From: an uncultured Deferribacteres bacterium
GTDB lineage: Bacteria > Zhuqueibacterota > Zhuqueibacteria > Zhuqueibacterales > Geothermadaptataceae
DNA length: 64,000 bases
Assembly (NCBI GenBank): GCA_964014485.1
Contig: CAXHAT010000005.1
Coordinates: 95 to 64,094, forward strand
Direction: 5' to 3'
Shown: piece by piece, positions 39,524 to 62,099 of the stretch
How positions within the stretch are numbered: the stretch's first letter is position 1
How the letters are laid out: every line of letters starts with the position of its first letter
Translations under genes and position numbers: made by a program
Notes under the pieces: generated by a model
The model's input: the letters and a program-made list of their open reading frames with translations, nothing else
The model's database searches: none
Told to the model about the DNA's origin: nothing

Positions 39524-42500
39524 ATGTTTAAAAAGTTCTTTTCTATCTCACTGGCAAGCTTGCTCGTACTCTTTGCCTCAGTTGCGTTTGCTCAAGATGC
39601 AACGGTCGCAGGGACGGTTAACGATGAAGCTGGCGAAGCGCTAGTAGGCGCAAACGTCTTCCTGGAAGGCACAAACCTAGGGGCCGCAACTGATGAGAAT
39701 GGTTCTTATCGGTTTGTTGTCGCCGCATCTTATGTCAGAGGTCAAGAAGTTAAGATTACGGCTCGCTTCATTGGCTACAGGCACAAGACGGAACGCGTCA
39801 CTTTGAATCCGGGGAATATCAACCTGGACTTTGCTTTGGCGGAAGACGTCTTGAAAATGGACGCCATTGTTGTTACTGGAGTTGTTGACGAGACTCCAAA
39901 AACAAAATTGGCATTTTCCGTAGCTTCGGTCGACCAGGAAGCATTAGAGCATGCTCCCGCCGGTTCTCCTGAAGCGGCGCTGCGCGGCAAGGTCGCCGGC
40001 GTTAAAGTCGTTCGAGGCAGCGGCCAGCCAGGCTCTGAAGCTTCTGTGCTGCTGAGAGCGCCAATCATGATCAATGCATCAGGACGTTCTCAGGATCCGC
40101 TGTACATTGTTGACGGCGTGATCATTGACCCATCCGTTTCCGGCAGCCCCTTGTCGGATATTCCAACCGAAGACATCGAAAGTATGGAAGTTGTAAAAGG
40201 CGCAGCGGGCGCTTCGCTTTACGGCTCTCGTGCGGCTAACGGCGTTGTCGTGATTAACACCAAGCGCGGCAACAAGCTTGGCGTTGGACAGACCAAAGTC
40301 CATGTTCGTAATGAGTTCGGTTTTAACTCTCTTGCCAAACAGCTCGATTTGAATGGAAGCCACGCATTTTTGACGGCGTCAACCTCTTACACTGACGCAT
40401 TCGGCAGAAGCGTGACCCCTGGCGATTTTGTTGACGGCGAAGGCAATTGGGTCGATCCGCGTTCTACTTCAGGGCGCCTTACGGATAACGTTGCTTGGTC
40501 AAACGATATTTTCTTTGCTGACAAGCCTTTTAAATGGGTCGGCACCGGCACTAACGGTCCTGGCGACGTATTTGGTGTTGTAAGCGGCGATTCTATCGCG
40601 CCAACACTGCTGACGGAGCCGCTCGATGCGTTGGGTCGTTTTTTCGATCCAAGTGATTTTATCAGCAATACGGTCTCTATTAGCCGGAATATGGAAAAGA
40701 CCAACTTCTTGGTCAGTTTCGGCAACAACACCGAGTCAGGCGTTATTGACGGAATCGATGGATTCAACCGGAAAACCGCGAGAATCAACCTCGATCACAA
40801 ATTCGGCAATGATTTGACTGTCGGCGTTTCTACATTGATTAGTCAATCTGAACGTGACGTTGCCGGTAATGATAACAATGACGGCTTTAGCGGCGGCGGC
40901 GCCAACCCGTTCTTTGCTCTTACTTTCATGTCTCCGGAAGTAGACTTGAGTCTAAGAGATGAACGCGGTTTTTATATTGTTGCTCCGAATCCGGTCGCCT
41001 TGGAAGACAATCCTCTGATTTCTCTCCTTGAATATGATCGACTGGATTCTCGGAAACGGATTCTTGGCAGTATCACCTCACGCTGGGCGCCGACGAATTC
41101 CTTCAACCTTGAAGGTGCGTTTAGCTATGATCGCTCAGATCGTACCGGTTTTAATTTCCAGCCAAAGGGCATTCCGACTGAAGGCCAGCCTGGCGGTATC
41201 CCCGGACGGATGTTGAAAGGCGGCGCTATTGATGAGGCGTTGAACGGTAGCGTTACTGCACAATTCTCTCGTGCGTTCAACGATTTGACCGTACGCACGA
41301 AAGCGCAAGGTTTGTTCGAGCGCACCACGCGCGAATCCTTCTTCGGTGAAGGCGAAATCTTCGCGACTGGCGGCATTCGCAACATCGGCTCTACGCAAGT
41401 TCAGGACGCAGGCTCCGGCGAATCGGACATCCGCTCTACTGGTTATTCGTTGATCAGTGCGTTCGACTACAAAGATCGTTACATTGTAGACTTTCTTGTC
41501 CGTCGTGACGGCAGTTCGCTTTTTGGCTCCGACGAAAGATGGGCAACTTACTATCGCGCAAGCGGCGCCTACCGCTTGTCTCAGGAGAGCTGGTGGTTCT
41601 TGCCTGCTTTTGAAGAATTCAAGATTCGCGGTTCTTACGGCACCGCCGGCGGTCGCCCGAACTTCAGCGCACGCTTCGAAACCTGGAGCGTAACCGGCTC
41701 CGGTCAGGTGGTTAAGGGCAACTTGGGTAACAAAGAACTCAAGCCTGAATTCTCCAAAGAATTGGAACTCGGCGTTGACTTCACTTTCTTGAATCGTTTC
41801 TCAGTTGAAGCAAGCTACGTCGACGTTCAGACTGAAGATCAGCTTCTGTTTGCTCCGCTTCCGGGCTATGCTGGATACAACGCACGCTGGATCAACGGCG
41901 GTACGCTGGATTCAAAAATCTGGGAAGCCAGTTTGAATGCTTCTCTGAAGCAAACCAGAGACTTTAGCTGGACTGCAGGATTCAATTTTGATCGTACGCG
42001 CTCCACGCTGTCGCAAATTGACGTTCCGGCATACAGCGTCTCATATTTCCGCATCGTTGAAGGCGACGCATTTGGCACCTTCTATGGCGATAAGTGGGTC
42101 ACAGACGTTAGCGAACTGAACCCAGGTCTGCCTGCTGACGAGTTCCAGGTCAACGATGACGGTTATCTCGTTTGGGTTGGCTCAGGCAACACTTACACGG
42201 ACGGTATCAGCAATGAGCTCTGGGGAACCAGCGCTGATTTTACCGATAGCAACGGCAACACCCGTAATTATCGCTGGGGTATTCCGATCAAGGCTCAAAC
42301 GTTGAACGAAGACGGAACCATCAACGAAAACCATCCGATTGGCGATTCCACTCCAGACTTCAACCTCAGTTTCACCAACACTCTTCGCTGGAAAGGTCTG
42401 ACTTTCTATGGTCTGCTCGATGCACAGATTGGCGGCGACGTTTACTCCAACACGATTCAGTGGGGTAACCGCGACAATCAGTACGGCGAAACCGATCAAG

Positions 42501-42853
42501 CAGGCAAGCCTGAAGGTATGAAGAAGCCTATCCTTTATTACCAGATTCTTTATGATGTAAACGCTGGCAACAGCCACTACATCGAAAGCGGCGAATATCT
42601 CAAGCTCCGCGAGTTGTCTCTGCGGTATAAATTCAATCGCAAGCAGCTTTCTGGTCTTTTCGGCGGCTTGTTCCAGAGCCTGACGTTCGGCGTCGTTGGC
42701 CGCAACCTGTTGACTTGGTCTGACTTCAGAGGCTATGATCCTGAAGTTGGGCTTAGCGGCGGTTCCATCGGCAGCGCTGTTGTTGGTCGCGTCGATGCGT
42801 TCGGTTATCCGAACTTCAGAACCTTCTCAGGCCTGTTGGAATTCGAGTTTTAG
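39524..42853 (+). CDS. SusC/RagA-family TonB-dependent outer-membrane transporter
   Basis: I chose the ATG at 39524, preceded by ggaaggagga. Signal peptide: LLVLFASVAFAQ. Carboxypeptidase-regulatory-like N-domain: TVAGTVNDEAGEALVGANVFLEGTNLGAATDENGSYRF. The plug carries IESMEVVKGAAGASLYGSRAANGVVVINTKRG. A long barrel ends in LLEFEF. Confidence 0.9.
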   Translation: MFKKFFSISLASLLVLFASVAFAQDATVAGTVNDEAGEALVGANVFLEGTNLGAATDENGSYRFVVAASYVRGQEVKITARFIGYRHKTERVTLNPGNINLDFALAEDVLKMDAIVVTGVVDETPKTKLAFSVASVDQEALEHAPAGSPEAALRGKVAGVKVVRGSGQPGSEASVLLRAPIMINASGRSQDPLYIVDGVIIDPSVSGSPLSDIPTEDIESMEVVKGAAGASLYGSRAANGVVVINTKRGNKLGVGQTKVHVRNEFGFNSLAKQLDLNGSHAFLTASTSYTDAFGRSVTPGDFVDGEGNWVDPRSTSGRLTDNVAWSNDIFFADKPFKWVGTGTNGPGDVFGVVSGDSIAPTLLTEPLDALGRFFDPSDFISNTVSISRNMEKTNFLVSFGNNTESGVIDGIDGFNRKTARINLDHKFGNDLTVGVSTLISQSERDVAGNDNNDGFSGGGANPFFALTFMSPEVDLSLRDERGFYIVAPNPVALEDNPLISLLEYDRLDSRKRILGSITSRWAPTNSFNLEGAFSYDRSDRTGFNFQPKGIPTEGQPGGIPGRMLKGGAIDEALNGSVTAQFSRAFNDLTVRTKAQGLFERTTRESFFGEGEIFATGGIRNIGSTQVQDAGSGESDIRSTGYSLISAFDYKDRYIVDFLVRRDGSSLFGSDERWATYYRASGAYRLSQESWWFLPAFEEFKIRGSYGTAGGRPNFSARFETWSVTGSGQVVKGNLGNKELKPEFSKELELGVDFTFLNRFSVEASYVDVQTEDQLLFAPLPGYAGYNARWINGGTLDSKIWEASLNASLKQTRDFSWTAGFNFDRTRSTLSQIDVPAYSVSYFRIVEGDAFGTFYGDKWVTDVSELNPGLPADEFQVNDDGYLVWVGSGNTYTDGISNELWGTSADFTDSNGNTRNYRWGIPIKAQTLNEDGTINENHPIGDSTPDFNLSFTNTLRWKGLTFYGLLDAQIGGDVYSNTIQWGNRDNQYGETDQAGKPEGMKKPILYYQILYDVNAGNSHYIESGEYLKLRELSLRYKFNRKQLSGLFGGLFQSLTFGVVGRNLLTWSDFRGYDPEVGLSGGSIGSAVVGRVDAFGYPNFRTFSGLLEFEF

Positions 42854-42989
42854 TCACGCTTTTTGAAAAGCATTCGAATCTTTTGCACGCGTAAACTTCA
42901 TAAAGCTTACGCGTGCGATTTCGGTTCGTAATATGAGCGAAGAGTCGATGAGATTTTTCGTCTTGGAATTTCAGTGGAGGAATTAAAAT

Positions 42990-44588
42990 ATGAAAAACAA
43001 GATTTTTAAAATCACCGTTCTTAGCCTTTTGCTAGCCTTTGCGGGCATGGCGACTTATGGCTGTCAGGAACTGGAAACCGTCAACGTCAACAGTCCGGAT
43101 GAGGCGCGTGCGCTTCAAAATCCGGAGGATGTTGAAGCTTTGATCGCCGGCGCCTATTTTAGCTGGTTTACGGCCGTTTTTAACGGCAATCCGATTGAGT
43201 CTTTGGAAACGTCCGCGGACGTTCTTTCATACTCTTGGGGTAACTTTGGCTCACGTGAGCTTTCGTCCGAGCCGAGGGCGGCGATTCCAAATCAAACAAG
43301 CTGGCGTTATCGCGCTTTCGTAAACACGCCTTGGTTTGGTCTGTATGGCGCCATTTCTTCCGCAAACGATGGTCTCCGTGCAATTGACGGCGGCCTTGAG
43401 ATTGAAGAACTGGCTCGTGCACGTGCATTTGCCAAGTTCAATCAGGGAATTTCCCATGCGATGTTGGCAATACTTTTTGACCAGGCCTTCATCTTTGATG
43501 AAACGATTGATCTTGAAACCGCTGACCTTCAGCTTTCGGATTACAACGCAGTTTTCGCTGCGGCCAAAACTCAGTTGGAAGAAGCGATTTCGATAATGGA
43601 AAGCAATAGCTTTACCCTGCCTGGAACATGGATTATCGGGACGTCTTACTCAAGCGCTGAGCTTGCGCAACTGACGCACACCTTGTTGGCAAAATTCATG
43701 ACGATGGTTCCGAGGGATGCGGCTGCACGCTCCGCGGTCAATTGGAACGAAGTGCTTTCTCATATCGATCGCGGGATCACCGAAGATTTTGTTATGATCG
43801 ATCAGGAAGCGGAATGGTGGAATTCGTTGCCTTGGTACCACTCGAGAGCGTCAAGCACGACTTGGGGACGCGGCGACTACAAAATGATTGGCCCGTCTGA
43901 CCGCTCCAGCGGCTACCAGGACTGGTTGAGCACGCCAACTTCCGCACGAGATGATTTCGAAATGGACACGGCTGACTTGCGCATCTGGGATCAAACCCGC
44001 GACGACAGCGGTAATCAGAACCCTGGCTTGTACTATGATAACAGAGGCGCAGCGCGCTTCCCGCCGGATCGCGGCACCTACCATCACTCAATGTACTCCA
44101 ACCACCGCTGGCCGGATTATCAGGCAAGCAGCGGCAACGGCCCAATGACGATCATTTTGGCCGTTGAAATGGATTTCTTGCGCGCCGAAGCTCTGTTACA
44201 CACGGGCGGCAGCTTGCAGGAAGTTGTTGATATTATCAACGCAACGCGCGTTGTCAACGGCGGCCTCGAAGCGGCTGACGTATCTGACGGCGCCGGCAGC
44301 ATGAGCGATACCCGTGCAGCTTTGAAGCCTGCTTCCTTGTGGGGCATGCTGAAGTATGAAAAAGCCATCGAAACGACTTTGACTTTCGTCGCTACGCAAT
44401 TCTGCGACGCCAGAGGTTGGGGCGACCTGACCGGCGGCACCTTCACGCAGCTTCCGATTCCTGCACAGGAATTGGAAACCTTGCAGCTCGCGACCTATAC
44501 TTTTGGCGGCAGCGGCCCTGGCTCTGCACCAAAACAACATAAAGACAGAGTCAGATTGCATAGCTCAGAAGCTTCAGGCGTTCACTAA
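42990..44588 (+). CDS. SusD/RagB-family outer-membrane lipoprotein
   Basis: Lipobox: AGMATYGCQ. It sits immediately downstream of SusC. It has the SusD-like helical N-terminal region (ALIAGAYFSWF..., RARAFAKFNQGISHAMLAILFDQAF) and is 532 aa long. Confidence 0.8.
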   Translation: MKNKIFKITVLSLLLAFAGMATYGCQELETVNVNSPDEARALQNPEDVEALIAGAYFSWFTAVFNGNPIESLETSADVLSYSWGNFGSRELSSEPRAAIPNQTSWRYRAFVNTPWFGLYGAISSANDGLRAIDGGLEIEELARARAFAKFNQGISHAMLAILFDQAFIFDETIDLETADLQLSDYNAVFAAAKTQLEEAISIMESNSFTLPGTWIIGTSYSSAELAQLTHTLLAKFMTMVPRDAAARSAVNWNEVLSHIDRGITEDFVMIDQEAEWWNSLPWYHSRASSTTWGRGDYKMIGPSDRSSGYQDWLSTPTSARDDFEMDTADLRIWDQTRDDSGNQNPGLYYDNRGAARFPPDRGTYHHSMYSNHRWPDYQASSGNGPMTIILAVEMDFLRAEALLHTGGSLQEVVDIINATRVVNGGLEAADVSDGAGSMSDTRAALKPASLWGMLKYEKAIETTLTFVATQFCDARGWGDLTGGTFTQLPIPAQELETLQLATYTFGGSGPGSAPKQHKDRVRLHSSEASGVH

Positions 44589-44622
44589 TCCGCGTTTGAC
44601 TTTCTGACAAATCTTTCTTAGT

Positions 44623-44662
44623 AAAGGCTGTCTCAATTTTTTGAGACAGCCTTTGTTTTTTG
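44623..44662 (+). terminator. rho-independent terminator after SusD
   Basis: aaaggctgtctcaa tttt ttgagacagccttt is a perfect 14-bp stem. It is followed by gttttttg. Confidence 0.85.
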
Positions 44663-44711: not shown

Positions 44712-44889
44712 TGAAAAAGTCCGGAATTGTCATGCTGGAAGCATCTTTTTTGATCTAACCCTTGAACCTTGAGGCGAATTCTCGCCGGACGATTACAAAG
44801 ATTTTGCTTCGCCGGCCTTCGGCTCTTCAGAATGACAAACCGGGACTTCTCTTCGGTTAAAACAGTAGTTCACAAAAAGTGTCAGGTAA
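44712..44889 (+). mobile_element. MITE-like element, family B, copy B1
   Basis: The inverted arms are gaaaaagtccggaattgtcatgctggaagcatc and cagaatgacaaaccgggacttctc. It shares the 3' tail ...cacaaaaagtgtcaggtaa with copy B2. It ends 35 nt before the cytochrome ATG. Confidence 0.75.
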
Positions 44890-44923
44890 TGAACTGTCCG
44901 AGAATTTTTGTGAACTATTTCAT

Positions 44924-46162
44924 ATGCGCCGAAGTGATTTTTTGCGCTTGTCGCTCATTGGGGCCATTGCCGGAATGCTCAATTTTTCCTTGTCGGCTTG
45001 CTTTCAGCCTTCGGAAGAACAGAAGAACGAAAACACCGATCTGGACGCTTCCGAATGGCTTGGCGAAGCAGTTTACGTTGGCCCGGAAACTTGCGGCGAG
45101 TGTCATGCTGGACGGCTTGAAAAGATCAAGAACACTGCCCATTTTTTGACTGCGAGCGTCCCGACACAGGAAGCGTTCTCTAACAAACTGCCGGCTGAAA
45201 AAACAACCATCCAAACCCGCAACCCCAACTTGCATTTTGAGGTCAGTTCCAGTGACAGCGGCGTCTTTCAGGAAGCCTTCCTCAAACGAAGCGGCGGCAT
45301 AGCAAGGCGGACTGAACGCATCGATTTTGTGATCGGGTCGGGAAAACTTGGACAATCCTACTTGTACTGGCGCGGCAATGCACTCTTTCAATTGCCGATC
45401 TCTCACTTGACCGCAACGAACGAATGGGGTAACAGCCCTGGCTATCCCGACGGGATCGCCGACTTTAATAGAAAAATTTTACCCCGCTGCCTGGAATGCC
45501 ACGCCACATTTTTCGAAGCTGAATCGCACGGCAGCAATCTATACCATAAAGAAAATTATATACTTGGCGTTACCTGTGAACGTTGTCACGGCCCCGGATC
45601 GGAACATGTCGAATTTCACCGCGACAACCCGGACTATGAACAAGCTGCCTATATTCAATATCCTGGAGAATTTGACCGCGACCGCTTGATCGATCTTTGC
45701 TCGCAATGCCACGCCGGACAAGGCGTCGGGATGATGAAACCGCCTTTTTCATACCGCCCGGGAGATGATCTAAAGGAACACATCATCTTGAAGGCTCTCA
45801 AAGCGCAGAGCCAAACGGGCGTTCATGCTGCGAATCAAGTCGCCAGGCTTAGTGAGTCAAAATGCTTTCAAGAAAGCGAGAGTTTGACCTGCATTTCCTG
45901 CCATAATCCCCATCAATTGGAGCGCGGCAAACTAGAGCTTTTTTCGCAACGATGCCAGAAATGTCACGAACCGCAGATTTGCGGCATGTCGCCGAAACTG
46001 GGCGCAAGTATCGAATCCAATTGCATTGATTGCCACATGCCGCGCGCTAAAGATTTGAACATTGATATCCAAACTGTTAGCGGTTTTGAGTTTCCGATTA
46101 TGCGAGATCACGTCATCGGCATTTATCCTGAAATCACGCAGCGTTTTCTCACGCGAAACTAA
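44924..46162 (+). CDS. multiheme c-type cytochrome (7 CXXCH), predicted lipoprotein with twin-arginine-like signal
   Basis: I chose the ATG at 44924. The N-terminus is MRRSDFLRLSLIGAIAGMLNFSLSAC. Seven CXXCH motifs are present: CGECH, CLECH, CERCH, CSQCH, CISCH, CQKCH, CIDCH. Confidence 0.9.
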   Translation: MRRSDFLRLSLIGAIAGMLNFSLSACFQPSEEQKNENTDLDASEWLGEAVYVGPETCGECHAGRLEKIKNTAHFLTASVPTQEAFSNKLPAEKTTIQTRNPNLHFEVSSSDSGVFQEAFLKRSGGIARRTERIDFVIGSGKLGQSYLYWRGNALFQLPISHLTATNEWGNSPGYPDGIADFNRKILPRCLECHATFFEAESHGSNLYHKENYILGVTCERCHGPGSEHVEFHRDNPDYEQAAYIQYPGEFDRDRLIDLCSQCHAGQGVGMMKPPFSYRPGDDLKEHIILKALKAQSQTGVHAANQVARLSESKCFQESESLTCISCHNPHQLERGKLELFSQRCQKCHEPQICGMSPKLGASIESNCIDCHMPRAKDLNIDIQTVSGFEFPIMRDHVIGIYPEITQRFLTRN

Positions 46163-46167
46163 AATTT

Positions 46168-46323
46168 CACCCCTTTCGGGGTTTTGTAAAATATTGTTTT
46201 AACGCTTTATCTATAATCTTTTCACCCCTCCGGGGTTGGTAAGAACAACAAATCCCGAAGGGATGGTAAGATTATAGAAATTAGAGAATGCGCCCATCTC
46301 CACAACCCCGAAGGGGGTGATAT
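46168..46323. repeat. cluster of four short GC hairpins (REP-like) immediately upstream of the Y1 transposase gene
   Basis: The hairpins are acccctttcggggt, cacccctccggggttggtaaga, aatcccgaagggatggtaaga and aaccccgaagggggtga. In addition, ctataatctt (46211-46220) and aagattatag (46268-46277) form an outer inverted repeat around the middle two. Confidence 0.8.
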
Positions 46324-46339
46324 AAACTCAAGGAATCAA

Positions 46340-46801
46340 ATGGCGGGAACATTTTCACAAATTTACATTCAGTCCGTTTTTGCGGTAAAAGGGAGACAAA
46401 ACCTATTACAGAAGCCGTGGCGCAAAGAGGTTTTTAAATACATGTCCGGCATTATAAAAAATAAAGGTCAGAAACCGATTATTGTCAATGGAGTCGAAGA
46501 CCATGTGCATGTTTTCATCGGCCTAAAGCCTTCGGCTTCCATTTCCAGCCTTGTACGCGACATAAAGAACAACACAAGTAAATTCATCAATGAGCAAAAT
46601 TGGCTTGGCGGCAAATTCGCATGGCAAGAAGGATATGGGGCGTTTTCTTATTCGCATTCCCAAATCGACGCTGTCTACAAATATATTCTTAACCAGGAAG
46701 AGCATCATCGGAGAAAAAGTTTCCGAGAAGAGTATCTGAGCTTTCTCAAAAAATTCCAGATTTCCTATGATGAACAATTCTTGTTTGACTGGCTGGATTG
46801 A
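46340..46801 (+). mobile_element. IS200/IS605-type Y1 (HUH) transposase homologue, RAYT-like, single gene
   Basis: 153 aa. HUH motif: DHVHVFIG. Catalytic-Tyr region: WQEGYGAFSYS. The C-terminal NQEEHHRRKSF tail is typical of the REP-associated subgroup. There is no tnpB partner. It is flanked upstream by REP-like hairpins. Confidence 0.85.
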
Positions 46802-46806
46802 TAAAG

Positions 46807-50626: not shown

Positions 50627-50787
50627 CGAAAAAAGCCGGAATTGTCATGCTGGAAGCATCTTTTTTTATCCGACCCTTGAACTTTTGAGCATGATCTGTA
50701 CTGGGCGATAACAAAGATTCTTTCAGAATGACAAAACGGGGCCTTTCGACGGCTCGAAAATGCAGTTTACAAAAAAGTGTCAGGTAA
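50627..50787 (+). mobile_element. MITE-like element, family B, copy B2
   Basis: gcgaaaaaagccggaattgtcatgctggaagcatcttttttt ... ctttcagaatgacaaaacggggcctttcg ... tttacaaaaaagtgtcaggtaa is collinear with B1. The exception is a ~20-nt segment present only in B1. Confidence 0.75.
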
Positions 50788-50914: not shown

Positions 50915-51094
50915 ATGAAAAGAATCTTGAATTTTTTGAGAGTTAAGCTGCCGGCTCTTTTGCTCGTTTTTCTTTTGGGCATTCCGGTTTTGACAACGCT
51001 GACAGCCTGCGGAGACGAACCGATTAACGGCCCAAGACTCGAAGAGGACGTTCCTGATCCCAATGACAGGGAAGGCGGTTCCGAGAGCGATTGA
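50915..51094 (+). CDS. 59-aa predicted lipoprotein
   Basis: The ATG at 50915 is preceded by gtgaggaa. Signal plus lipobox: LLLVFLLGIPVLTTLTACGDE. It has an acidic/Pro-rich mature tail and its own terminator directly downstream. Confidence 0.5.
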   Translation: MKRILNFLRVKLPALLLVFLLGIPVLTTLTACGDEPINGPRLEEDVPDPNDREGGSESD

Positions 51095-51117: not shown

Positions 51118-51155
51118 AAAAGCCCTTCAGTTCATAATTCTGAAGGGCTTTTTTA
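51118..51155 (+). terminator. rho-independent terminator
   Basis: aaagcccttcag ttcataatt ctgaagggcttt is a 12-bp stem followed by ttt. Confidence 0.8.
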
Positions 51156-51319: not shown

Positions 51320-52072
51320 GTGTTGTTTCGAAAATATGTGATATTTTTATGCGTCTGCCTAAGCGGATGCCAGGCAAATCAAGAAGAAAAACCCGTGTTG
51401 GAGACGCGCGATCAAAAGTACAGCTACGGCCTTGGCGTTGAGATGGGAGAAGGGCTGCGTTTGCTGCAAGTCGAATTTCCCGATCTTGACCCGGAGCTTG
51501 TTGCCAGAGGGTTGCGAGATGCGCTGGAGAGAAGAGAGCTTCTCGCAAGTCAAACCGAATTGAAAAAGGCCAAGCTTTTTACGGAAGACATGCTCATGGA
51601 AAAGCGGGTGCAGACCCATATCAAAAATGATCCTGAGTTTGAGGCGCTGCTGCAAAAGAACAAGGAAGAAAGCGAGGCTTTTCTTGGAAAGAACCGCACT
51701 CGGGAAGGCGTTGTTGTGACGGCGAGCGGCGTGCAGTACGAAATAATTCGTGCGGGCGAGGGCAAAAGCCCGAAGGCGAAGGACGAAGTATTGATGCATC
51801 TTCGCGGAACGCTGATCGACGGTACGGAATTCGATAATTCGCGAAAGGCTTTCGGTACGCCGGTGAAATACCGGGTTCAGCATTTGATTCGCGGATTTAG
51901 CGAAGTAATCCAACTGATGCAGGAAGGCGCGAAGTGGAAGCTCTATATTCCTTCTGATCTGGCCTACGGAAAAGGCGGTCGCGAGCCAAACATTGGACCC
52001 AACATGGCGCTTGTTTTTGAAGTGGAAGTGGTCGAAGTTATTCCGAACCAATACGAATATAAGAGAAAATAA
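51320..52072 (+). CDS. FKBP-type peptidyl-prolyl cis-trans isomerase (FkpA/Mip-like), lipoprotein
   Basis: GTG start preceded by ggagga. Lipobox: CVCLSGCQ. FKBP_C block: GVQYEIIRAGEGKSPKAKDEVLMHLRGTLIDGTEFDNS...VIQLMQEGAKWKLYIPSDLAYG...PNMALVFEVEVVEV. Confidence 0.9.
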   Translation: MLFRKYVIFLCVCLSGCQANQEEKPVLETRDQKYSYGLGVEMGEGLRLLQVEFPDLDPELVARGLRDALERRELLASQTELKKAKLFTEDMLMEKRVQTHIKNDPEFEALLQKNKEESEAFLGKNRTREGVVVTASGVQYEIIRAGEGKSPKAKDEVLMHLRGTLIDGTEFDNSRKAFGTPVKYRVQHLIRGFSEVIQLMQEGAKWKLYIPSDLAYGKGGREPNIGPNMALVFEVEVVEVIPNQYEYKRK

Positions 52073-52188: not shown

Positions 52189-53949
52189 GTGCTGGGCGAC
52201 AACATAGCTTTTTTCAGAACGGCAAGTCGGAGGGCTTCGTCAATCGCCTCGTCAGCATCAGTTTTTTTAAACTGTGCGGTCATTCTATGGGTTGGAGTTG
52301 CGGGCTGTGGAAAAAACGCCGGTACGAACGGAGCCGCCGATGCAGTTGACGCTGCTCCAGTTTTTTCTGAGATTTCCGGACAAAGTCAACTTGCCTTTAC
52401 CCACTTCACCGGCTATGACAGCACCTATTTTGTGCCCGAAAGCATCGGCTCCGGCGCTGCGTTGCTCGACTACGACAACGACGGCGATCTTGACGTTTAT
52501 TTCGTAAACGGCGCGCCGCACGGGCGGAATCGGCGTGATCAACCCAAACCGAAAAATCAGCTTTTTAGGCAAGAGACCGACAAGACGTTCACCAATGTTA
52601 CGGATGCTTCCGGCTTGGGCGACACAGGCTATGGAATGGGCGTTGCGGTCGGCGATATTGACAACGACGGTTTTGTTGACGTCTATATTTCGAATTACGG
52701 CCCCGATAAGCTCTACCGCAACAACGGCGACGGCTCCTTTACCGACATTACCCGAAGCGCGAGAATCGTGAATCGAAATTGGGGGTGTTCGGTGGTTTTC
52801 TTTGACGGCGACATGGACGGTTTCCTGGATATTTTTGTGACGAATTACCTGGCTTATAATCCGTCCAATCAATGCGTTTATGAGGCTGGGAGTCAGGATT
52901 ATTGCGGGCCCGCAGGTTTTCCCGGCGTTGCTGACGTTTTGTACCGCAATAACGGTGACTTGACTTTTACGGATGTTTCACGGAAGGCGGGCGTCGCAGG
53001 CGTTGCTTTGCGCGGCCTCGGAGTCGTGAGCGCGGATTTTGACGGTGATCATCTTCCCGACGTTTACGTTGCCAATGACGGCGATCCAAACATATTGTGG
53101 GTTAACCAAGGTGACGGCACATTTACGGATGCTGCGTTGCGCATGGGTGCGGCGTTTAACGAAATGGGGCGTCCGGAAGCCGGGATGGGCGTCGCGGTCG
53201 GTGACGTTGACAACGACGCGGATTTTGATATTTTTATCTCACACTTGCGCGGTGAAAGCAATACTTTTTACCGTAAGCAAGCGTTCGGCTTTCAGGATGA
53301 CTCAGCGCCTTCCGGCATTGAAGGAAAGAGTCTGCCTTACACCGGTTTTGGAACCGGCTTCCTGGATTTTGAGAACGACGGCGATCTTGATCTTGCCGTT
53401 GTCAACGGGCGGGTGACGCGCGGCATGTTGCTTTCAAAGAAGCAGGCTGCGGAACATTGGGATTATTACGCCGAGCCAAATCTTCTTTTTGAAAATGACG
53501 GCGACGGTCGTTTTACGACAATTGGAGAAGCGGGAGATTTTTCCACGCTGATCGAAAACAGTCGAGGGTTGGCGATTGGAGACCTCGACAACGACGGCGG
53601 TGTTGACGCCTTGGTTACAAACGGCGGCGGAGATGCGCGTCTGTTTCGAAACGTTTCTGTTGAGAGAGGGCACTGGCTGATTGTTCGCGCCCTGAACCCA
53701 AAATTGAAGCGTGACGCTTACGGCGCCCAGGTAACAACGCATTTCGCCGGCAGAAAACTAACACGACTAATACAGCCCGGCTACAGTTTTCTGAGCAGCA
53801 ACGATCCGCGCGCACATTTCGGCTTAGGTGATTCAGCAGAGATTGACAGCCTGGTTGTTCAATGGCCGGACGGTGCAAAAGAGAAGTTTGTTGTGGATAG
53901 CGTAGACCGTATTTTGACCGTGGAGAAAGGAACGGGCGACCAAAATTGA
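52189..53949 (+). CDS. CRTAC1-family protein (FG-GAP/VCBS propeller + C-terminal ASPIC/UnbV), S1
   Basis: Lipobox-like VGVAGCG. Other blocks: PESIGSGAALLDYDNDGDLDVYFVNG, VGDIDNDGFVDVYISNYG, and C-terminal WLIVRALNP..RDAYGAQV......SFLSSNDPRAHFGLG...VQWPDG. The GTG start is uncertain. Confidence 0.85.
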   Translation: MLGDNIAFFRTASRRASSIASSASVFLNCAVILWVGVAGCGKNAGTNGAADAVDAAPVFSEISGQSQLAFTHFTGYDSTYFVPESIGSGAALLDYDNDGDLDVYFVNGAPHGRNRRDQPKPKNQLFRQETDKTFTNVTDASGLGDTGYGMGVAVGDIDNDGFVDVYISNYGPDKLYRNNGDGSFTDITRSARIVNRNWGCSVVFFDGDMDGFLDIFVTNYLAYNPSNQCVYEAGSQDYCGPAGFPGVADVLYRNNGDLTFTDVSRKAGVAGVALRGLGVVSADFDGDHLPDVYVANDGDPNILWVNQGDGTFTDAALRMGAAFNEMGRPEAGMGVAVGDVDNDADFDIFISHLRGESNTFYRKQAFGFQDDSAPSGIEGKSLPYTGFGTGFLDFENDGDLDLAVVNGRVTRGMLLSKKQAAEHWDYYAEPNLLFENDGDGRFTTIGEAGDFSTLIENSRGLAIGDLDNDGGVDALVTNGGGDARLFRNVSVERGHWLIVRALNPKLKRDAYGAQVTTHFAGRKLTRLIQPGYSFLSSNDPRAHFGLGDSAEIDSLVVQWPDGAKEKFVVDSVDRILTVEKGTGDQN

Positions 53950-55487: not shown

Positions 55488-57266
55488 GTGGCAGGAAAGA
55501 AATGCGGCTTAATTTTTTTCGTCAAAAGTGCGATGCTTTTAACGGCGCTTGGGGGACTGATGAGTTGCGCTTATGACGATTCCGGACAAGGCAAGATTTT
55601 TCGGGACGCTACGGAGGAGTCGGGTCTAAATTTTGTGCACTCGGCGACCGCGGACGCGTGCTACTTTATGCCGGAAAGCATTGGCTCGGGCGTGGCGTTG
55701 TTGGATTATGACAACGACGATGATCTTGATATTTACCTTGTGAATCTTGCCTCGCATCATCCTGAAAAAACTGAGCAGCAAGCTGAAGTCAACCGCCTGT
55801 TTCGCCAGGAAGAAAGCGGCGTTTTTGTGGATGTTACAGCCGAGTCTGGAATCGGCGACGCGGGGATTGGCATGGGCGCGACCGTTGGCGATTTCAATAA
55901 CGACGGTTTTGCCGACGTTTACGTCACGAATTATGGCCCGGACGCTCTTTACAAAAACAACGGTGACGGCACTTTTACGGACGTTACCGAAGCCGCCGGC
56001 GTCCTGAACGATAAATGGGCCTGCTCCGCAATATTTTTTGATTTTGACCTGGATGGATTTCTCGATCTCTACGTGACGAATTACGTGGATTACGATTCGA
56101 GCTTCAAATGCCCGGACAAGGCCGGACGTCTTGAATATTGCGGGCCTAAAGCGTTCACCGGCGTCAGCGACGTTTTGTTCAAAAATACCGGCGACGGTTC
56201 TTTCACGGATGTGACTTGGAAAACGGGCGTCGGCGGCGTTGCCGCAAACGGTTTGGGCGTCGTATCAGCGGATTTTAATAACGACGGCTTTCCCGACCTG
56301 TACGTCGCCAATGACGCTGAACCGAATACGCTCTGGATCAATCAAAAGGGCGAAGGTTTTCAGGATCAGGCCTTGGAATTTGGCGTTGCCCTGAACGAGA
56401 TGGGGCGGGAAGAAGCGAGCATGGGCGTCGCGCTGGGCGAAACGAGGGAGGGCGCCTATCCGGATTTGTTCATTTCGCACTTGCGAAGCGAAAGTAACAC
56501 GTTGTACCGTTATTCCAATAGCTCAGGTTACGAAGATCTTTCCGCCGCCGCCGGTTTCGGAGCGCCTGAATTGATTTCCTACACGGGATTCGGCGCGGGT
56601 TTTCTCGATTTCGACAATGACGGAGATTACGATTTAGCCGTTGCCAACGGCCGCATTTTAAGAGCGCCAATACTCACCGAATCTGAGCCTGTGACGCGCT
56701 GGGATCATTACGCTGAGCCAAACTCATTGCTTGAAAATGATGGCGGGCGGTATCTTTTTTCGCACTTGCGTCAAGACCCTTTTTGCAAAAATATTGAAAT
56801 GACCAGAGGCCTAGCGTTTGGCGATATCGACAACGACGGGGACGTCGACATGGTGGCGTCAAATATCGGGAGCCAAGCGCGTTTATATTTGAACGAGGCT
56901 GGCGGACGCGGCGCCTGGCTCACAGTGAGTGCGATTGACCCGATTCTGAAGCGTGACGCCGTGGGAGCAAAAATTAGGGTCAAGACCAAAAGCAAAACGT
57001 ACACAAAGTTTGTCGCACCAGCTTACAGCTTTTTGTCCAGCAATGATTTTCGCGTCCATTTCGGACTCGGCGCAGAAGATCGCGTGGAAGAGATCGTCAT
57101 AGAGTGGCCCGGCGGCGAAGTGGAAGTTTTTCCCGGCGTTGCGGCGAATCAATTCGTTGTCTTGAAGAAAGGACAGACGGGAAAATCAAGCGCCGCGAGA
57201 GAGAAGGCCGAGTCACAAGTTCCAAAAGCTGCGATCTCGCGGGATTACGCGCAGAACGCTTTTTAA
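55488..57266 (+). CDS. CRTAC1-family protein (FG-GAP/VCBS propeller + ASPIC/UnbV), S2
   Basis: The GTG start is 1 nt after the T1 stop and is preceded by ggaggag. Lipobox-like LGGLMSCAY. Other blocks: PESIGSGVALLDYDNDDDLDIYLVN, and C-terminal WLTVSAIDP..RDAVGAKIRV...SFLSSNDFRVHFGLG...IEWPGG. Confidence 0.85.
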   Translation: MAGKKCGLIFFVKSAMLLTALGGLMSCAYDDSGQGKIFRDATEESGLNFVHSATADACYFMPESIGSGVALLDYDNDDDLDIYLVNLASHHPEKTEQQAEVNRLFRQEESGVFVDVTAESGIGDAGIGMGATVGDFNNDGFADVYVTNYGPDALYKNNGDGTFTDVTEAAGVLNDKWACSAIFFDFDLDGFLDLYVTNYVDYDSSFKCPDKAGRLEYCGPKAFTGVSDVLFKNTGDGSFTDVTWKTGVGGVAANGLGVVSADFNNDGFPDLYVANDAEPNTLWINQKGEGFQDQALEFGVALNEMGREEASMGVALGETREGAYPDLFISHLRSESNTLYRYSNSSGYEDLSAAAGFGAPELISYTGFGAGFLDFDNDGDYDLAVANGRILRAPILTESEPVTRWDHYAEPNSLLENDGGRYLFSHLRQDPFCKNIEMTRGLAFGDIDNDGDVDMVASNIGSQARLYLNEAGGRGAWLTVSAIDPILKRDAVGAKIRVKTKSKTYTKFVAPAYSFLSSNDFRVHFGLGAEDRVEEIVIEWPGGEVEVFPGVAANQFVVLKKGQTGKSSAAREKAESQVPKAAISRDYAQNAF

Positions 57267-57279
57267 CAAGAGAAGACAT

Positions 57280-58302: not shown

Positions 58303-58337
58303 GTGCGCGGCTTAAATGCGCATAGCTTCTGGAGACG

Positions 58338-61300
58338 ATGAAAAGAATAAGTAAAAACAAAGCCGATTTGCAACGAACGAAGCCAACTATATTGAAGGGC
58401 TTAAAGCTTGGTTTTGCATTTTTCGCTTTGACGTTTTTTCAATGCAGTCTTGATCATACTTTGCACTGGAATGAAGCCGACGGGTATCGTTGGTCTGAGG
58501 TCAATTTCAGCACGAGCAAGGAAGTCGGGTTCACAGCAATGTCGAACGAAGAAACCCAGGTTGTATTTCAGAATGAACTGACGGAAGAGCTCATTGTTCG
58601 CAACCACGTTCTGTTGAACGGCTCCGGGCTTGCGCTTGGTGACGTTGACGGCGACGGGCTGACGGACATTTATTTCTGCCGTTTGGACGGCCCAAACGTG
58701 CTGTACAAGAATCTCGGCGATTGGAAATTCCAAGACGTAACCGAGAACGCCGGCGTCGCTTGCCCTGACGAATTTTCTACCGGAGCGGTTTTCTCGGACT
58801 TGGACGGTGATTTTGACCTCGACCTGCTCGTCACGTCCATCGGCGGGAAAAACTTCTTTTTCTTGAATGACGGTAAGGGCGTGTTTACTGAGGAAAGTGA
58901 AAAACGGGGGCTCAAATCCGGCTCAGGCGCGACCACAATGGCTCTTGCTGACATTGACGGCGACGGCGATCTTGATCTTTACGTCACGAATTACAAGGCG
59001 CTGCGAGCCAACAACATCTTCATGCCGCACGAGCTGAACTATGAAAATATTATCGAGAAAGACGAGGCCAACGGAACTTTCAAAATTCGCGAAAAATATC
59101 AGGGTCACTACGATTTGGTTTTTGTCGACAATTTCATTTTGTGGGAGGAGCGCGGGGAACCTGACGCACTTTATCTCAACGACGGCGAGGGACGGTTTGA
59201 ATTAACCGCGCCGGATGCAGGCGCCTTTTTCGACGAAGCCGGGAAACCGGTTGAAACGTTTTATGATTGGGGGCTTGCGGCAAAATTCCAAGACGTCAAC
59301 AATGACGGTCACCCGGATCTGTATGTTTGCAACGACTTCAATAGTCCGGACAGAATCTGGATGAACGACGGAACGGGGCGGTTTCAGGCGATAAAAAAGC
59401 AAGCCATTCGACACACTTCGCACTCCTCGATGGCGGTGGATTTTGCGGATGTTGAAAGAGACGGAGATTTGGACGTTTTTGTCATCGATATGCTGGGCAT
59501 GAATCATCAAAGACAAAAAATGCAGTTCAACACGATGCCGCCGACAAGCGCCAAAATCGGTGCGTTGGACGACCGGCTGCAATACATGAGAAACACATTG
59601 TTGTTGAATGCCGGGCATGATGAATACACGGAAATCGGCAGATTCAGCGGCGTGCACGCCTCGGATTGGTCATGGTCTGCAAATTTTCTCGATATCGATT
59701 TGGACGGCTACGAAGATATTCTGATTGCGACCGGCCAGATCAGCGACACGCAGAATATGGACGTGCGGAAGAAAATGATAGATCAAAATTTTTCTGGCAT
59801 GGCGAACGCGCCGGAGACGATTTTGAGATATCCGCGGCTGCCTTTGCCGAACGTCAGCTTTCGGAACAACGGCGACCTGACTTTTACTGAAACTTCCGAC
59901 GAATGGCGATGGGGGGGAGACGCTGACATAAGCCACGGGATGGCCTTGGGCGACTTGGACAACGACGGCGATTTGGACGTTGTGGTCAATCGATTTCAGC
60001 AGCCTGCGGGATTGTTTAGAAATGACGCTTCGCAAAATCGGGTTACGGTTCGTCTGCGCGGCGCGGCTCCAAACACGCAAGGCGTTGGCGCCAAGATTCG
60101 CTTCACGGGCAACGGGGCGCCGCAAATGAAAGAAGCTACGCTCGGCGGGTCGTATCTTTCAGGGAATGCTCAGACATATACTTTTGCCGCGGTAGAAGGA
60201 AAAGCTGAACTTGCGCTCGAAATTACCTGGAGAAATGGCGCGAAAAGCAAAATTGAAGACGTTCAACCGAATCGAATTTATGAGATTTTTGAAGAGGGCG
60301 CGCAGACGGTCGCCCAAGAGTCTGAACTTTCGAGCACTGAGCCTTTCTTTAAAAATGTTGACCAGGGAATTGATTTCAAGCACAGCGAAGAATTGTTTGA
60401 TGATTTTTCTCGGCAACCGTTGCTGCCCTTGAAACTGAGCCAACCAGGGCCGGGCGTCGCTGTTCAAGACACTGACTTTGACGGCGACGATGACTTGTTC
60501 ATAACCTCTGGAAGAAACGGCAAGCCTGCGCACTTCGAAAATCTCGGTGACGGCTCCTGGCGAAAGCGAACCGACGCGCTTCTTGCAGGAAGAGCCGTTT
60601 TGGATCAGCCCGCCGTTTTGAGTTGGGTTGAAGGCGATGAGTCGGACGGCAAAGTTGTTCTTGTGACGGCGTTCTCGAATTACGAAAACCCCGCACATCA
60701 CTCCTTTGTACTGAAATATGTTCTGGAGCGCGGTAAAACCGTCGCCGTCGATACAATTTTTACGACAACGGCTGATATTGGCCCGCTTGCCGCCGCTGAC
60801 TACGACAATGACGACGATCTCGACTTGTTTGTCGGCGGACGCTCTACGCCCGGACAATATCCGACGCCCCCGTCGTCTTTTCTGCTCATTAATGAAGACG
60901 GGGCTTTCAAGCCGGACGACCGGAATAACAAAAACTTGCAAAATTTCGGCATGGTGAGTCAGGCGATATTTTCAGATATTGATCATGACCATGATCCCGA
61001 TTTGATCATCGCCGAACAATGGGGGCCGGTGACGGTTTTCCGAAATGAACAAGGCGTTTACCGCGACGCGACCGAAAAATTGGGCCTGGACAAATATCTC
61101 GGTTTGTGGAACGGACTGACCACAGCAGATATCGACGGCGACGGCAGGCTCGATATTCTGGCGACAAATTGGGGCAGGAACAGCAGGTATTCGTTTGACC
61201 CGGATTATCCCATTCGCTTGTTCTACGGCGATCTTGACAGAAACGGAACGACCGAGGTCATCGAAGCTTTTTTTGAGCACGACCTGGGCGTGTACGTCCC

Positions 61301-62099
61301 GTATCACCGGCTGGAAAAATTGATTCAGGCAACGCCTTTTACTCAAATACGCATGCCGACTTTTTCACGGTTCGCCAATTCGGGCCTGGACAAAATTCTC
61401 GGGACGGATTTGGCGAATTTACCGCAGCTTTCGATCAACACTTTGGACAACACGTTGTTCATAAACAGAAGCGACGGATTTTCCGGAACGTCTCTTCCTG
61501 ACGATGCAAATTTTTCTCCGGCCTTTCATGTCGGAGCAGCCGATTTTGACAACGACGGCGATTTTGACGTTTTCTTGTCACAGAATTTTTTTGGAGAATT
61601 ACCGGAATACGGTAAATCAGATGCGGGACGCGGGTTGTGGCTGGAAAACGATGGAACGGGCAAATTTCGGAGCGTCTCAAGCGCTGAATCCGGAGTGCGG
61701 GTTTATGGCGAACAGCGCGGCGCGGGGTTCGGTGATTTCAATTCAGACGGGCGCATCGATTTTGTTGTGTCACAGAACGGCGCAGCGGTTGAGCTTTTCC
61801 AGAACAAAAAGGCCAAACCCGGCTTGAGAATCAAGCTGCGCTATAAAGCTAAAAATTACACAGCCGTCGGCGCAAAAGTTCGCACGAAGCTCAAAGACGG
61901 AAGCGGGCCATTGTATGAATTGAAGGCCGGTTCGGGTTACAGGTCGCAAGGCGGCTCGACGATAATCGCCGGCAATAGAGAAGAAATAACCGGCGTTGAA
62001 GTCCTTTGGCCCGACGGGAAGATCGCCCAGTTTGAAGTTCCGCCGGATGCAAAAGAAGTCGTTTGTTATTACGACGGGAGACTCGAAACGCGAGAATAG
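58338..62099 (+). CDS. large FG-GAP/VCBS-repeat protein with two ASPIC/UnbV domains (CRTAC1-like), lipoprotein L2, paralogue of L1
   Basis: Lipobox: LTFFQCS. It is collinear with L1 along its whole length (for example LNGSGLALGDVDGDGLTDIYFCRLDGPNVLYKNLGDWKFQDVTENAGVAC versus L1 LNGSGVTIGDVDGDGLADIYLCQLDGANALYKNLGNWKFQNITEAAGVAC). It has two UnbV/ASPIC-like modules. Confidence 0.85.
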   Translation: MKRISKNKADLQRTKPTILKGLKLGFAFFALTFFQCSLDHTLHWNEADGYRWSEVNFSTSKEVGFTAMSNEETQVVFQNELTEELIVRNHVLLNGSGLALGDVDGDGLTDIYFCRLDGPNVLYKNLGDWKFQDVTENAGVACPDEFSTGAVFSDLDGDFDLDLLVTSIGGKNFFFLNDGKGVFTEESEKRGLKSGSGATTMALADIDGDGDLDLYVTNYKALRANNIFMPHELNYENIIEKDEANGTFKIREKYQGHYDLVFVDNFILWEERGEPDALYLNDGEGRFELTAPDAGAFFDEAGKPVETFYDWGLAAKFQDVNNDGHPDLYVCNDFNSPDRIWMNDGTGRFQAIKKQAIRHTSHSSMAVDFADVERDGDLDVFVIDMLGMNHQRQKMQFNTMPPTSAKIGALDDRLQYMRNTLLLNAGHDEYTEIGRFSGVHASDWSWSANFLDIDLDGYEDILIATGQISDTQNMDVRKKMIDQNFSGMANAPETILRYPRLPLPNVSFRNNGDLTFTETSDEWRWGGDADISHGMALGDLDNDGDLDVVVNRFQQPAGLFRNDASQNRVTVRLRGAAPNTQGVGAKIRFTGNGAPQMKEATLGGSYLSGNAQTYTFAAVEGKAELALEITWRNGAKSKIEDVQPNRIYEIFEEGAQTVAQESELSSTEPFFKNVDQGIDFKHSEELFDDFSRQPLLPLKLSQPGPGVAVQDTDFDGDDDLFITSGRNGKPAHFENLGDGSWRKRTDALLAGRAVLDQPAVLSWVEGDESDGKVVLVTAFSNYENPAHHSFVLKYVLERGKTVAVDTIFTTTADIGPLAAADYDNDDDLDLFVGGRSTPGQYPTPPSSFLLINEDGAFKPDDRNNKNLQNFGMVSQAIFSDIDHDHDPDLIIAEQWGPVTVFRNEQGVYRDATEKLGLDKYLGLWNGLTTADIDGDGRLDILATNWGRNSRYSFDPDYPIRLFYGDLDRNGTTEVIEAFFEHDLGVYVPYHRLEKLIQATPFTQIRMPTFSRFANSGLDKILGTDLANLPQLSINTLDNTLFINRSDGFSGTSLPDDANFSPAFHVGAADFDNDGDFDVFLSQNFFGELPEYGKSDAGRGLWLENDGTGKFRSVSSAESGVRVYGEQRGAGFGDFNSDGRIDFVVSQNGAAVELFQNKKAKPGLRIKLRYKAKNYTAVGAKVRTKLKDGSGPLYELKAGSGYRSQGGSTIIAGNREEITGVEVLWPDGKIAQFEVPPDAKEVVCYYDGRLETRE

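Follow-up and report, generated by a model that had tools for sequence, protein, structure and literature searches.

A 64,000-nt stretch of contig CAXHAT010000005.1 from an uncultured bacterium (hereafter the window, in whose coordinates all positions are given) encodes on one strand a SusC/SusD-type importer, a heptahaem c-type cytochrome, CRTAC1-like propeller lipoproteins and tetratricopeptide repeat (TPR) lipoproteins (Table 1). Together they are best explained as an envelope locus for nutrient uptake, conserved though modular, in a bacterium of the Fibrobacterota-Chlorobiota-Bacteroidota (FCB) group that is Calditrichota/KSB1-like. Tentatively, and with slightly less than even confidence, we read the locus from its sequences as a modular uptake system in which the propeller-TPR-cytochrome set would capture a polymeric substrate and act by redox chemistry. 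The argument begins with what was observed directly: domain content, lipoprotein signals, conserved synteny and cytochrome-TPR fusions.

The gene association extends beyond the window. Synteny analysis bore out the proposed co-occurrence of TonB-dependent transporter, CRTAC1-like propeller, TPR and multihaem cytochrome genes, which was found in close relatives, in Bacteroidota and in Acidobacteriota. Below, L and S denote double and single CRTAC1-like modules, T the TPR lipoproteins, Cyt the cytochrome and X a 164-aa lipoprotein of an unnamed family; loci of other genomes carry three-digit numbers. The closest relative (L001/L084) has the order GDSL-like, Cyt, L, 57-aa gene, FKBP, S, T, L and ExbB-ExbD-ExbD. 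Locus L085 consists of SusC, divergent SusD, X, L, a small gene, L, L, a multihaem cytochrome, S, T and a histidine kinase, and L086 and L087 contain L085-like parts, their cytochrome being a membrane-anchored 5-haem protein with a fused TPR domain. Locus L088 reads SusC, divergent SusD, X, L, 56-aa gene, FKBP, L. No carbohydrate-active enzyme (CAZyme) was found in any of these close-relative loci (L001/L084, L085-L088). The KSB1-type cytochromes (L085 18276-20357, L086 18289-21279, L087 71-2977) have N-terminal transmembrane helices and 4-5 CXXCH motifs, with a C-terminal TPR domain in the two longer ones (L086, L087), and this type of cytochrome looks like an inner-membrane electron entry point.

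A wider survey covered 80 loci with homologues of the heptahaem cytochrome; one genome per species was scanned and the open reading frames (ORFs) were clustered. A CRTAC1-like gene adjoined the cytochrome gene in 18 of the 80 loci and lay within three genes of it in 25. A large outer-membrane transporter was encoded within 10 kb of the cytochrome in 25 loci, transporter and CRTAC1 genes occurred together in 16, and co-directional adjacent CRTAC1-TPR pairs were present in 10. The order was SusC-SusD-(LamG)-Cyt-L in Chitinophagaceae, Parafilimonas and Puia and SusC-SusD-L-Cyt in Arenibacter. Four Acidobacteriota loci encode, in order, a TonB-receptor-like CarboxypepD_reg/PF25183 barrel, TPR, S and Cyt, and the acidobacterial locus L049 has an alternating T-S-T-S-Cyt array. 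An S or L gene stands beside a Cyt-TPR fusion in Planctomycetota, and the propeller-cytochrome core alone was detected in Planctomycetota and Latescibacterota as well. When another 118 neighbours from 23 loci were classified by Pfam, they included more TPR (11) and FG-GAP (5) proteins and no universal enzyme. The transporters of Bacteroidota and KSB1 bacteria belong to different families from those of Acidobacteriota, and the recurrence therefore argues for a functional link and not purely for shared ancestry of one operon. The cytochrome-CRTAC1-transporter link is frequent, not obligate.

Full-text searches of the open literature returned no account of SusCD/TonB transporters in combination with multihaem cytochromes and CRTAC1/ASPIC-UnbV proteins. 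Papers on Solibacter and anammox touch on CRTAC1/ASPIC genes in passing only. One recent paper (PMC12758564) records CRTAC1-family genes next to genes for hydrazine-synthase-like haem proteins, an independent hint that the CRTAC1 family partners with c-type haem proteins.

The cytochrome is the product of the only multihaem ORF in the window and has, as predicted, exactly seven CXXCH motifs. It carries a lipoprotein signal peptide and a beta-rich insert at residues ~96-171. In 25 homologues all seven haem motifs were invariant, as were five other histidines and two additional cysteines. An exhaustive search found 905 clusters of this family at E<=1e-30 and 5406 at E<=0.001. Among the 150 best family representatives, 135 had exactly 7 CXXCH motifs and 55 were at least 570 aa long. 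TPR repeats were detected in eight of the ten long (>=570 aa) members tested, six with C-terminal and two with N-terminal repeats, and in the L053 protein. Fusion in both orders is classical evidence for a joint function of cytochrome and TPR module. It makes T1 and T2 the likely separate-chain equivalents of these fused TPR domains.

The only significant match of the cytochrome to a solved structure was OcwA (6i5b), both by sequence (phmmer E 5.7e-6) and by fold (Foldseek E 5.8e-7, probability 1.0). The named NCBIfam families compared (c554, DmsE/MtrA, GSU2203 and OmcA/MtrC) all scored far under their cutoffs (score/cutoff: NF043010 20/400, TIGR03508 44/192, NF041028 50/325, TIGR03507 19/209). 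The N-terminus of the protein (44924-44960) reads MRRSDFLRL, which is twin-arginine-like, and its signal ends in the lipobox LSAC; c-type cytochromes are normally exported by Sec. In eight loci (L002, L003, L034, L038, L047, L055, L021 and L027) the heptahaem cytochrome gene has a GFO/IDH/MocA gene as a direct or close neighbour. These oxidoreductases were considered as direct periplasmic electron donors and rejected: the two examined leave no room for a signal peptide, their Rossmann folds beginning at residue 8 or 20.

The propeller proteins of the window are of two sizes. L1 and L2 each gave about ten FG-GAP_3 matches and two UnbV_ASPIC domains, and S1 and S2 have one propeller and one UnbV_ASPIC domain; across the four proteins FG-GAP_3 scored 124-255 bits and UnbV_ASPIC 62-68 bits. 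S1 matched human CRTAC1 (9etn) over residues 83-565 with an E-value of 2.2e-18. JGI names identify UnbV with the E4 protein encoded in enediyne clusters. The positions conserved in at least 85% of 27 S-type homologues are mostly calcium-binding, DxDxDG-type residues and structural Gly, Asp, Asn, Phe and Leu, with a few scattered polar residues. A cysteine pair, kept in 22 of the 27, lies within an insert that is absent from human CRTAC1. Pfam and NCBIfam recognized no catalytic domain in the L, S and T proteins, and cryptic catalytic domains in them were rejected on this result together with the mostly calcium-binding and structural conservation of the S type. Because of that conservation, and because human CRTAC1 has no known catalysis, the propellers are read as probable binding or scaffold proteins, not enzymes.

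Several smaller lipoproteins accompany the propellers in the window and in its relatives. The 59-aa lipoprotein has positional equivalents in L085-L088. The FKBP is conserved in position in L084 and L088; its NCBIfam matches were all under cutoff, the best being FKBP-type peptidyl-prolyl isomerase models (131 vs. 198 bits), with BamJ at 91 vs. 100. For X, searches of Pfam, NCBIfam and PDB sequences were negative. Its homologues (E 1e-15 to 1e-30) are lipoproteins of 137-173 aa encoded right after SusD in L085 (5324-5803), L086 (two copies, 3667-4167 and 4332-4853) and L087 (8991-9404), and the copy in L088 (8009-8485) aligns at 25% identity. The X gene usually directly follows susD in the relatives and follows L2 in the window.

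SusC was identified by sequence and its partner mainly by fold. SusC scored 526.7 bits with TIGR04056 (cutoff 368) and has the SusC signature, Plug and CarboxypepD_reg domains in Pfam and NCBIfam searches, and the NCBIfam siderophore models were far under their cutoffs for this transporter. Its signal peptide is of the ordinary type, not Cys-ended; the ribosome-binding site and start of its gene are conserved in L088, and 136 nt separate susC from susD. SusD was weak by sequence, with a Pfam SusD-like_3 score of 19.9 bits, which is under the gathering score, and a profile search that reached levan SusD at E 0.002. Its AlphaFold2 model had a predicted local distance difference test score (pLDDT) of 88.9, and the top 50 PDB matches in Foldseek were all SusD-family (probability 1.0, template modelling (TM) score 0.41-0.65). 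On the strength of this model, the locus has the SusC/SusD pair of a polysaccharide utilization locus (PUL). L2 and SusD have their nearest named relatives in Caldithrix, KSB1 and Marinimicrobia at ~45-51% identity, those of L2 including Caldithrix abyssi at ~50%.

The original prediction had called the region a PUL of non-glycan type with no catalytic enzymes. The second part stood, as a hidden Markov model check of the predicted genes (Pfam, NCBIfam) gave no glycoside hydrolase (GH), polysaccharide lyase (PL), carbohydrate esterase (CE), sulfatase or peptidase match, and no GH, PL, CE or sulfatase family was detected in any product between 29.6 and 64 kb. The non-glycan label was not borne out, as the related cytochrome was found within CAZyme-rich PULs of Chitinophagaceae and Pedobacter. 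The Chitinophagaceae PUL L052 encodes an extracytoplasmic function (ECF) sigma factor, FecR, SusC, SusD, a ConA-like lectin/glucanase, Cyt, L, two to three PF10091 (GH144-type) proteins and a PKD protein tagged for the type IX secretion system, and L055, L064 and L047 have a similar arrangement. The Pedobacter cytochrome gene follows genes for GH30 and GH5-CBM6 proteins, behind a Y_Y_Y hybrid two-component sensor and SusCD. The cytochrome gene stands beside DUF4838/GH20b-like, heparinase-like, esterase and GFO genes in Latescibacterota, and beside genes for a sugar-binding regulator, a short-chain dehydrogenase/reductase (SDR) and a GFO oxidoreductase in one acidobacterial type. Judging from these neighbourhoods, the cytochrome is a portable accessory of sugar- or polymer-utilization loci, often paired with L or S. 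Because the Bacteroidota cytochrome, with or without L, is embedded in CAZyme-rich PULs, the substrate is by analogy most likely a glycan or glycan-containing organic matter. The version in the window lost or never had linked CAZymes, and its propeller and TPR genes were multiplied.

These results suggest a scheme, which we infer to operate at the cell surface or in the periplasm. The propellers would bind or hold a polymeric or particle-bound substrate, and the TPR proteins would dock the S propellers to the cytochrome. The cytochrome would carry out a redox step on the captured substrate or on substrate-bound metal, and SusCD would import the product of this step. The place of glycosidases would be taken by the accessory lipoproteins, namely the L and S proteins, a TPR protein for each S, the FkpA-like folding helper, the small acidic lipoproteins, X and the OcwA-like cytochrome.

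The original prediction also held that the locus has no dedicated regulator, and indeed regulators of the hybrid two-component system (HTCS), SusR-like and ECF sigma/anti-sigma classes are absent. Against that claim stand a histidine kinase and a sigma-54 response regulator encoded 6-9 kb upstream, together with a sigma-54-type site before susC both here and in L088. The pair is a candidate regulator whose membership of the locus is uncertain. The element sought was GG-N10-GC (-24/-12), and a match, TGGCACAAGGTTAGCA, lies ~290 nt upstream of the susC ATG. With one mismatch or fewer, the consensus was matched only twice in the 64-kb window, both times in + strand intergenic DNA and downstream of the histidine kinase/NtrC-type activator genes (30107-33236). 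The other one-mismatch site (35723-35738) is upstream of a BsuPI-like gene. The susC gene of L088 is preceded by a similar site, TGGCATAAGGTTGGCT, at 2673-2688 with the same AAGGT spacer. Three matches in the ~6.3 kb of intergenic DNA tested compare with an estimated ~0.3 expected, and with up to two mismatches the window-wide count was not above chance, which leaves the two one-mismatch sites and that of L088 as the ones of interest. SusC and SusD are predicted to be transcribed, probably, from a sigma-54 promoter; site and activator are a lead, not proof.

A number of observations weigh against the capture scheme. The region had been taken for a single machine, and it is in fact interrupted by terminator-like hairpins, one directly after susD and another after the 59-aa gene, and by an insertion sequence (IS) element that splits the cytochrome gene from L1. 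It therefore comprises several transcription units, at least three or four, and co-transcription of the whole set is unlikely. KSB1 relatives carry a different, non-orthologous cytochrome in equivalent loci, and no CRTAC1 gene lay within three genes of the cytochrome in 55 of the 80 surveyed loci. The SusD subfamily of the window stands alone in one Bacteroidota and one Gemmatimonadota genome (L089, L090). The similarity of T1 and T2 to the fused TPR domains is of the generic kind only (E 1e-5 to 1e-8), and since TPR similarity is generic, specific homology is unprovable. The confidence of the cytochrome model is no more than moderate (pLDDT 69.6), and its TM-score to OcwA is ~0.3. Neither the window nor the 10 kb downstream has a linked or secreted CAZyme, the sole downstream candidate being an opposite-strand GDE-type gene, and the glycan assignment therefore rests on distant relatives. 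The hairpin after susD and the solitary SusD homologues would also suit an arrangement in which independent units share no more than an envelope address: an ordinary SusCD pair and a separate periplasmic Cyt-CRTAC1-TPR module, serving for example as an electron-transfer accessory or a scaffold for cytochrome complexes, with no mechanistic coupling. The sigma-54-type site precedes susC and none of the other units, 55 of the 80 cytochrome loci have no transporter, and CRTAC1-family genes flank transport-unrelated hydrazine-synthase homologues (PMC12758564), all of which is consistent with separate units. We nonetheless regard independence as rather unlikely, because the genes are found together, for the most part in one direction and at close spacing, with two unrelated transporter families and in at least three phyla, because the place of X after SusD in relatives and after L2 in the window ties both halves together, and because an ExbBD cluster lies directly 3' of the second L gene in L084.

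Two further explanations assign the set a different chemistry. The locus could be a metal or mineral system in which the propellers adhere to Fe(III)/Mn(IV) phases or metal-organic complexes, the surface cytochrome reduces the metal in the manner of OcwA and the transporter imports the metal chelate thus released, amounting to reductive iron acquisition or small-scale extracellular electron transfer. It is favoured by the nearest solved structure, an Fe(III)-reducing surface cytochrome, by the membrane-anchored multihaem cytochromes of KSB1 relatives, which could connect to the quinone pool, and by a thioredoxin-like gene in L086. Beta-propeller lipoproteins (BtuG, XusB) moreover cap TonB transporters for small ligands in Bacteroidota. 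This system is quite unlikely, however, since the SusC/SusD class typically imports oligomers and is not the siderophore class, whose NCBIfam models scored far under cutoff; the locus has no MtrB-like porin, siderophore or Fur-type genes; the Bacteroidota versions lie within glycan PULs; and many carriers are aerobic heterotrophs. Still less probable, in our judgement very unlikely, is that the propellers have a cryptic enzymatic activity, as a new lyase or as a redox enzyme made up of propeller and cytochrome like quinohaemoproteins, cd1 nitrite reductase or hydrazine synthase, with the cytochrome as dedicated electron partner. A propeller combined with a c-type cytochrome is a common architecture of periplasmic redox enzymes. 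The S-type insert with its conserved cysteine pair (22/27), the name of UnbV as an enediyne-cluster E4 protein and the position of CRTAC1-family genes beside hydrazine-synthase-like haem proteins (PMC12758564) could be taken in the same sense. The mostly calcium-binding and structural conservation of the 27 S-type proteins, in which no conserved His/Tyr/Glu/Arg constellation was seen, argues otherwise, as do the lack of any catalytic Pfam or NCBIfam domain and the lack of a CRTAC1-cytochrome fusion among the ten long family members tested.

Carried further, the capture scheme leads to a broader speculation that we think unlikely but worth stating: the propeller-TPR-heptahaem set would be a hitherto undescribed device for redox-assisted capture, coupled to TonB-dependent transporters in no fewer than three phyla (Calditrichota/KSB1-like bacteria, Bacteroidota and Acidobacteriota). 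The TPR-docked cytochrome would reduce or oxidize a metal or cross-link that holds polymers, freeing the polymer for binding by the calcium propellers and import. Its target may be, for example, Fe(III)-bound or redox-locked organic matter in soils and sediments. If true, bacterial CRTAC1/UnbV proteins and a cytochrome family of ~900 clusters would thereby gain their first functional context. SusCD loci are the standard model of polymer feeding in the FCB group, with hydrolytic enzymes assumed, and the window has propellers, TPR proteins and a cytochrome instead. Cultured Bacteroidota from soil and sea have the cytochrome, with or without the double propeller, as part of classical glycan PULs, which points to an unexamined redox step in polymer uptake. 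The results also provide genomic context for three large families, namely bacterial CRTAC1/ASPIC-UnbV proteins, heptahaem cytochromes and a divergent SusD subfamily missed by Pfam. Several carriers are cultured, among them Puia dinghuensis CGMCC 1.15448 (L064), Arenibacter aquaticus GUO (L063), Pedobacter sp. KACC 23697 (L069) and Caldithrix abyssi, so the question is open to direct testing.

The features of the locus are compiled in Table 1, for which genes were called from the ORF listing and translation. The twelve genes from susC to L2 were all recovered on the + strand in the predicted order and at the predicted coordinates, and the S1-T1-S2-T2-L2 spacing was exactly 61, 1, 13 and 35 nt. 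A Cys-ended signal peptide, expected for lipoproteins, is present in every product outside the IS element from SusD through X. The predicted extent was correct for the genes it listed but not for its end at 62099, as the set continues to 62776 with X. The entire 29.6-63.6 kb stretch is co-directional and starts with genes for a LiaF-like membrane protein, the histidine kinase and the NtrC-type sigma-54 activator. On the 87-kb metagenome scaffold of which the window is part (ENA ERZ23492073, LARK21-1), the 10 kb past L2 contain X, SDR and DUF6958 genes, then opposite-strand housekeeping genes.

Table 1. Features of the uptake locus and its candidate regulatory genes, with the basis of each assignment.
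Feature	Position	Strand	Basis or context
Histidine kinase	30107-31519	+	Pfam HAMP/HisKA/HATPase_c
NtrC-type sigma-54-dependent response regulator	31764-33236	+	Pfam Response_reg + Sigma54_activat + HTH_8; NCBIfam AtoC/NtrC class
Sigma-54-type -24/-12 site TGGCACAAGGTTAGCA	39217-39232	+	Consensus match, <=1 mismatch
SusC/RagA-type TonB-dependent outer-membrane transporter, 1109 aa	39524-42853	+	TIGR04056, Plug, CarboxypepD_reg
Divergent SusD-like lipoprotein, 532 aa	42990-44588	+	AlphaFold2 model + Foldseek; Pfam below gathering score
Intrinsic-terminator-like hairpin	44620-44657	+	17-bp stem plus T run, directly 3' of susD
Inverted-repeat/hairpin element, copy 1	44712-44862	+	Upstream of cytochrome gene
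Heptahaem c-type cytochrome lipoprotein, 412 aa	44924-46162	+	7 CXXCH; Cytochrome_C554 Pfam match
IS200/IS605 insertion	46163-46806	+	tnpA 46340-46801; GC hairpins like repetitive extragenic palindromes (REP-like) 46164-46323
L1, double CRTAC1-like lipoprotein, 1239 aa	46807-50526	+	2 x (FG-GAP propeller + UnbV_ASPIC)
Inverted-repeat/hairpin element, copy 2	50627-50758	+	Upstream of small lipoprotein gene
59-aa acidic lipoprotein	50915-51094	+	Sequence reading; 53% identity to 57-aa gene, locus L084
Terminator-like hairpin	51120-51155	+	3' of 59-aa gene
FkpA-like FKBP peptidyl-prolyl isomerase lipoprotein	51320-52072	+	FKBP_N + FKBP_C
S1, single CRTAC1-like propeller + UnbV_ASPIC lipoprotein	52189-53949	+	Pfam
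T1, TPR lipoprotein, 491 aa	54011-55486	+	Pfam
S2, single CRTAC1-like propeller + UnbV_ASPIC lipoprotein	55488-57266	+	Pfam
T2, TPR lipoprotein, 340 aa	57280-58302	+	Pfam
L2, double CRTAC1-like module, 1253 aa	58338-62099	+	Pfam
X, 164-aa lipoprotein, unnamed family	62282-62776	+	Homology to lipoproteins of related loci

The IS element was identified as IS200/IS605 by its Y1 transposase (PF01797, 86.5 bits; NF033573, 67 bits vs. a cutoff of 55), which is 53% identical to an annotated tnpA product and has four REP-like GC hairpins 5' of its gene. L001/L084, the closest relative, has no insert at this point and its cytochrome stop overlaps its L start; the complete IS of the window sits exactly at that junction, so it is a secondary insertion. 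A look-up of the identical cytochrome on a second contig, intended to date this event, gave no result. The IS may uncouple Cyt from L1 expression.

An inverted-repeat/hairpin element of 110-150 nt has two conserved boxes, TTGTCATGCTGGAAGCATCTT and AAGATTCT..TCAGAATGACAA, flanking a variable loop. Its copies in the window, the two of Table 1 and a third at 36805-36934 (-), all lie between transcription units, and a fourth was found at 4917-5020 of L086, upstream of an L gene in a KSB1 metagenome-assembled genome. RNAalifold folded the element with 24 pairs, 6 of them with compensatory changes. No Rfam family was matched at the gathering or E-value threshold, and a covariance model searched against 16 sources gave no copies beyond the four used for building it; these nulls rule out a widespread known RNA or riboswitch. 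The element may be a miniature inverted-repeat transposable element (MITE) or a regulatory hairpin.

Elsewhere in the window, direct repeats at 2230-2436 and 31613-31819 are 77-81% identical, one copy lying just upstream of the sigma-54 regulator gene, and the two copies of a 163-nt direct repeat (23480-23642 and 24483-24645), 94% identical, are separated by 1 kb close to where a MacB/FtsX gene ends. Three other finds, at 19-2004 (-), 19986-22448 (+) and 5540-6688 (+), are a pyrroloquinoline quinone (PQQ)-dependent dehydrogenase (812 bits), a PQQ_2 propeller adjoining a 3-keto-disaccharide hydrolase (DUF1080) that marks oxidative sugar metabolism, and a protein in which a TIR domain is fused to Lcl_C.

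Compared with known systems, the locus resembles PULs in its adjacent SusC and SusD-fold lipoprotein genes, its same-strand string of lipoprotein genes and a nearby sensor/regulator. It differs in that the locus and its closest relatives have no CAZyme, SusD falls under Pfam thresholds and the host is not a member of the Bacteroidota; its regulator candidate is a sigma-54 two-component system, whereas PULs have HTCS, SusR or ECF/anti-sigma regulators. The locus is thus probably PUL-like in its mode of working but not a demonstrable PUL member. The RagAB peptide importer and BT2261-2264 share with it a SusCD core, extra lipoproteins and the lack of glycosidases, and RagB and BT2263 were among the SusD fold matches. 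To our knowledge, neither system includes CRTAC1-type propellers, TPR partners or cytochromes, and no described system with a comparable accessory set was found.

The gene for an outer-membrane barrel beside that for a multihaem cytochrome recalls MtrCAB, as does weak similarity to MtrC, DmsE and GSU2203 (44-50 vs. 192-325 bits). The barrel of the window is, however, a plugged TonB-dependent transporter and not an MtrB-type sheath, and there is a single cytochrome gene; an MtrCAB-like conduit was ruled out on the grounds of one cytochrome only and no MtrB-like porin. Human CRTAC1, the ASPIC/UnbV family and enediyne E4 have the same succession of an FG-GAP calcium-binding propeller and UnbV_ASPIC. 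In contrast to human CRTAC1, the bacterial S proteins are lipoproteins with a cysteine-pair insert and the L proteins are tandem duplications, and the genes of both are paired with TPR and cytochrome genes. OcwA, the nonahaem surface terminal reductase of Thermincola potens, is like the cytochrome of the window a multihaem c-type protein located outside the cytoplasmic membrane. The window protein, at 18% identity, differs in having seven haems vs. nine, a lipoprotein anchor, a beta-rich insert and, in its family, frequent fusions to TPR domains.

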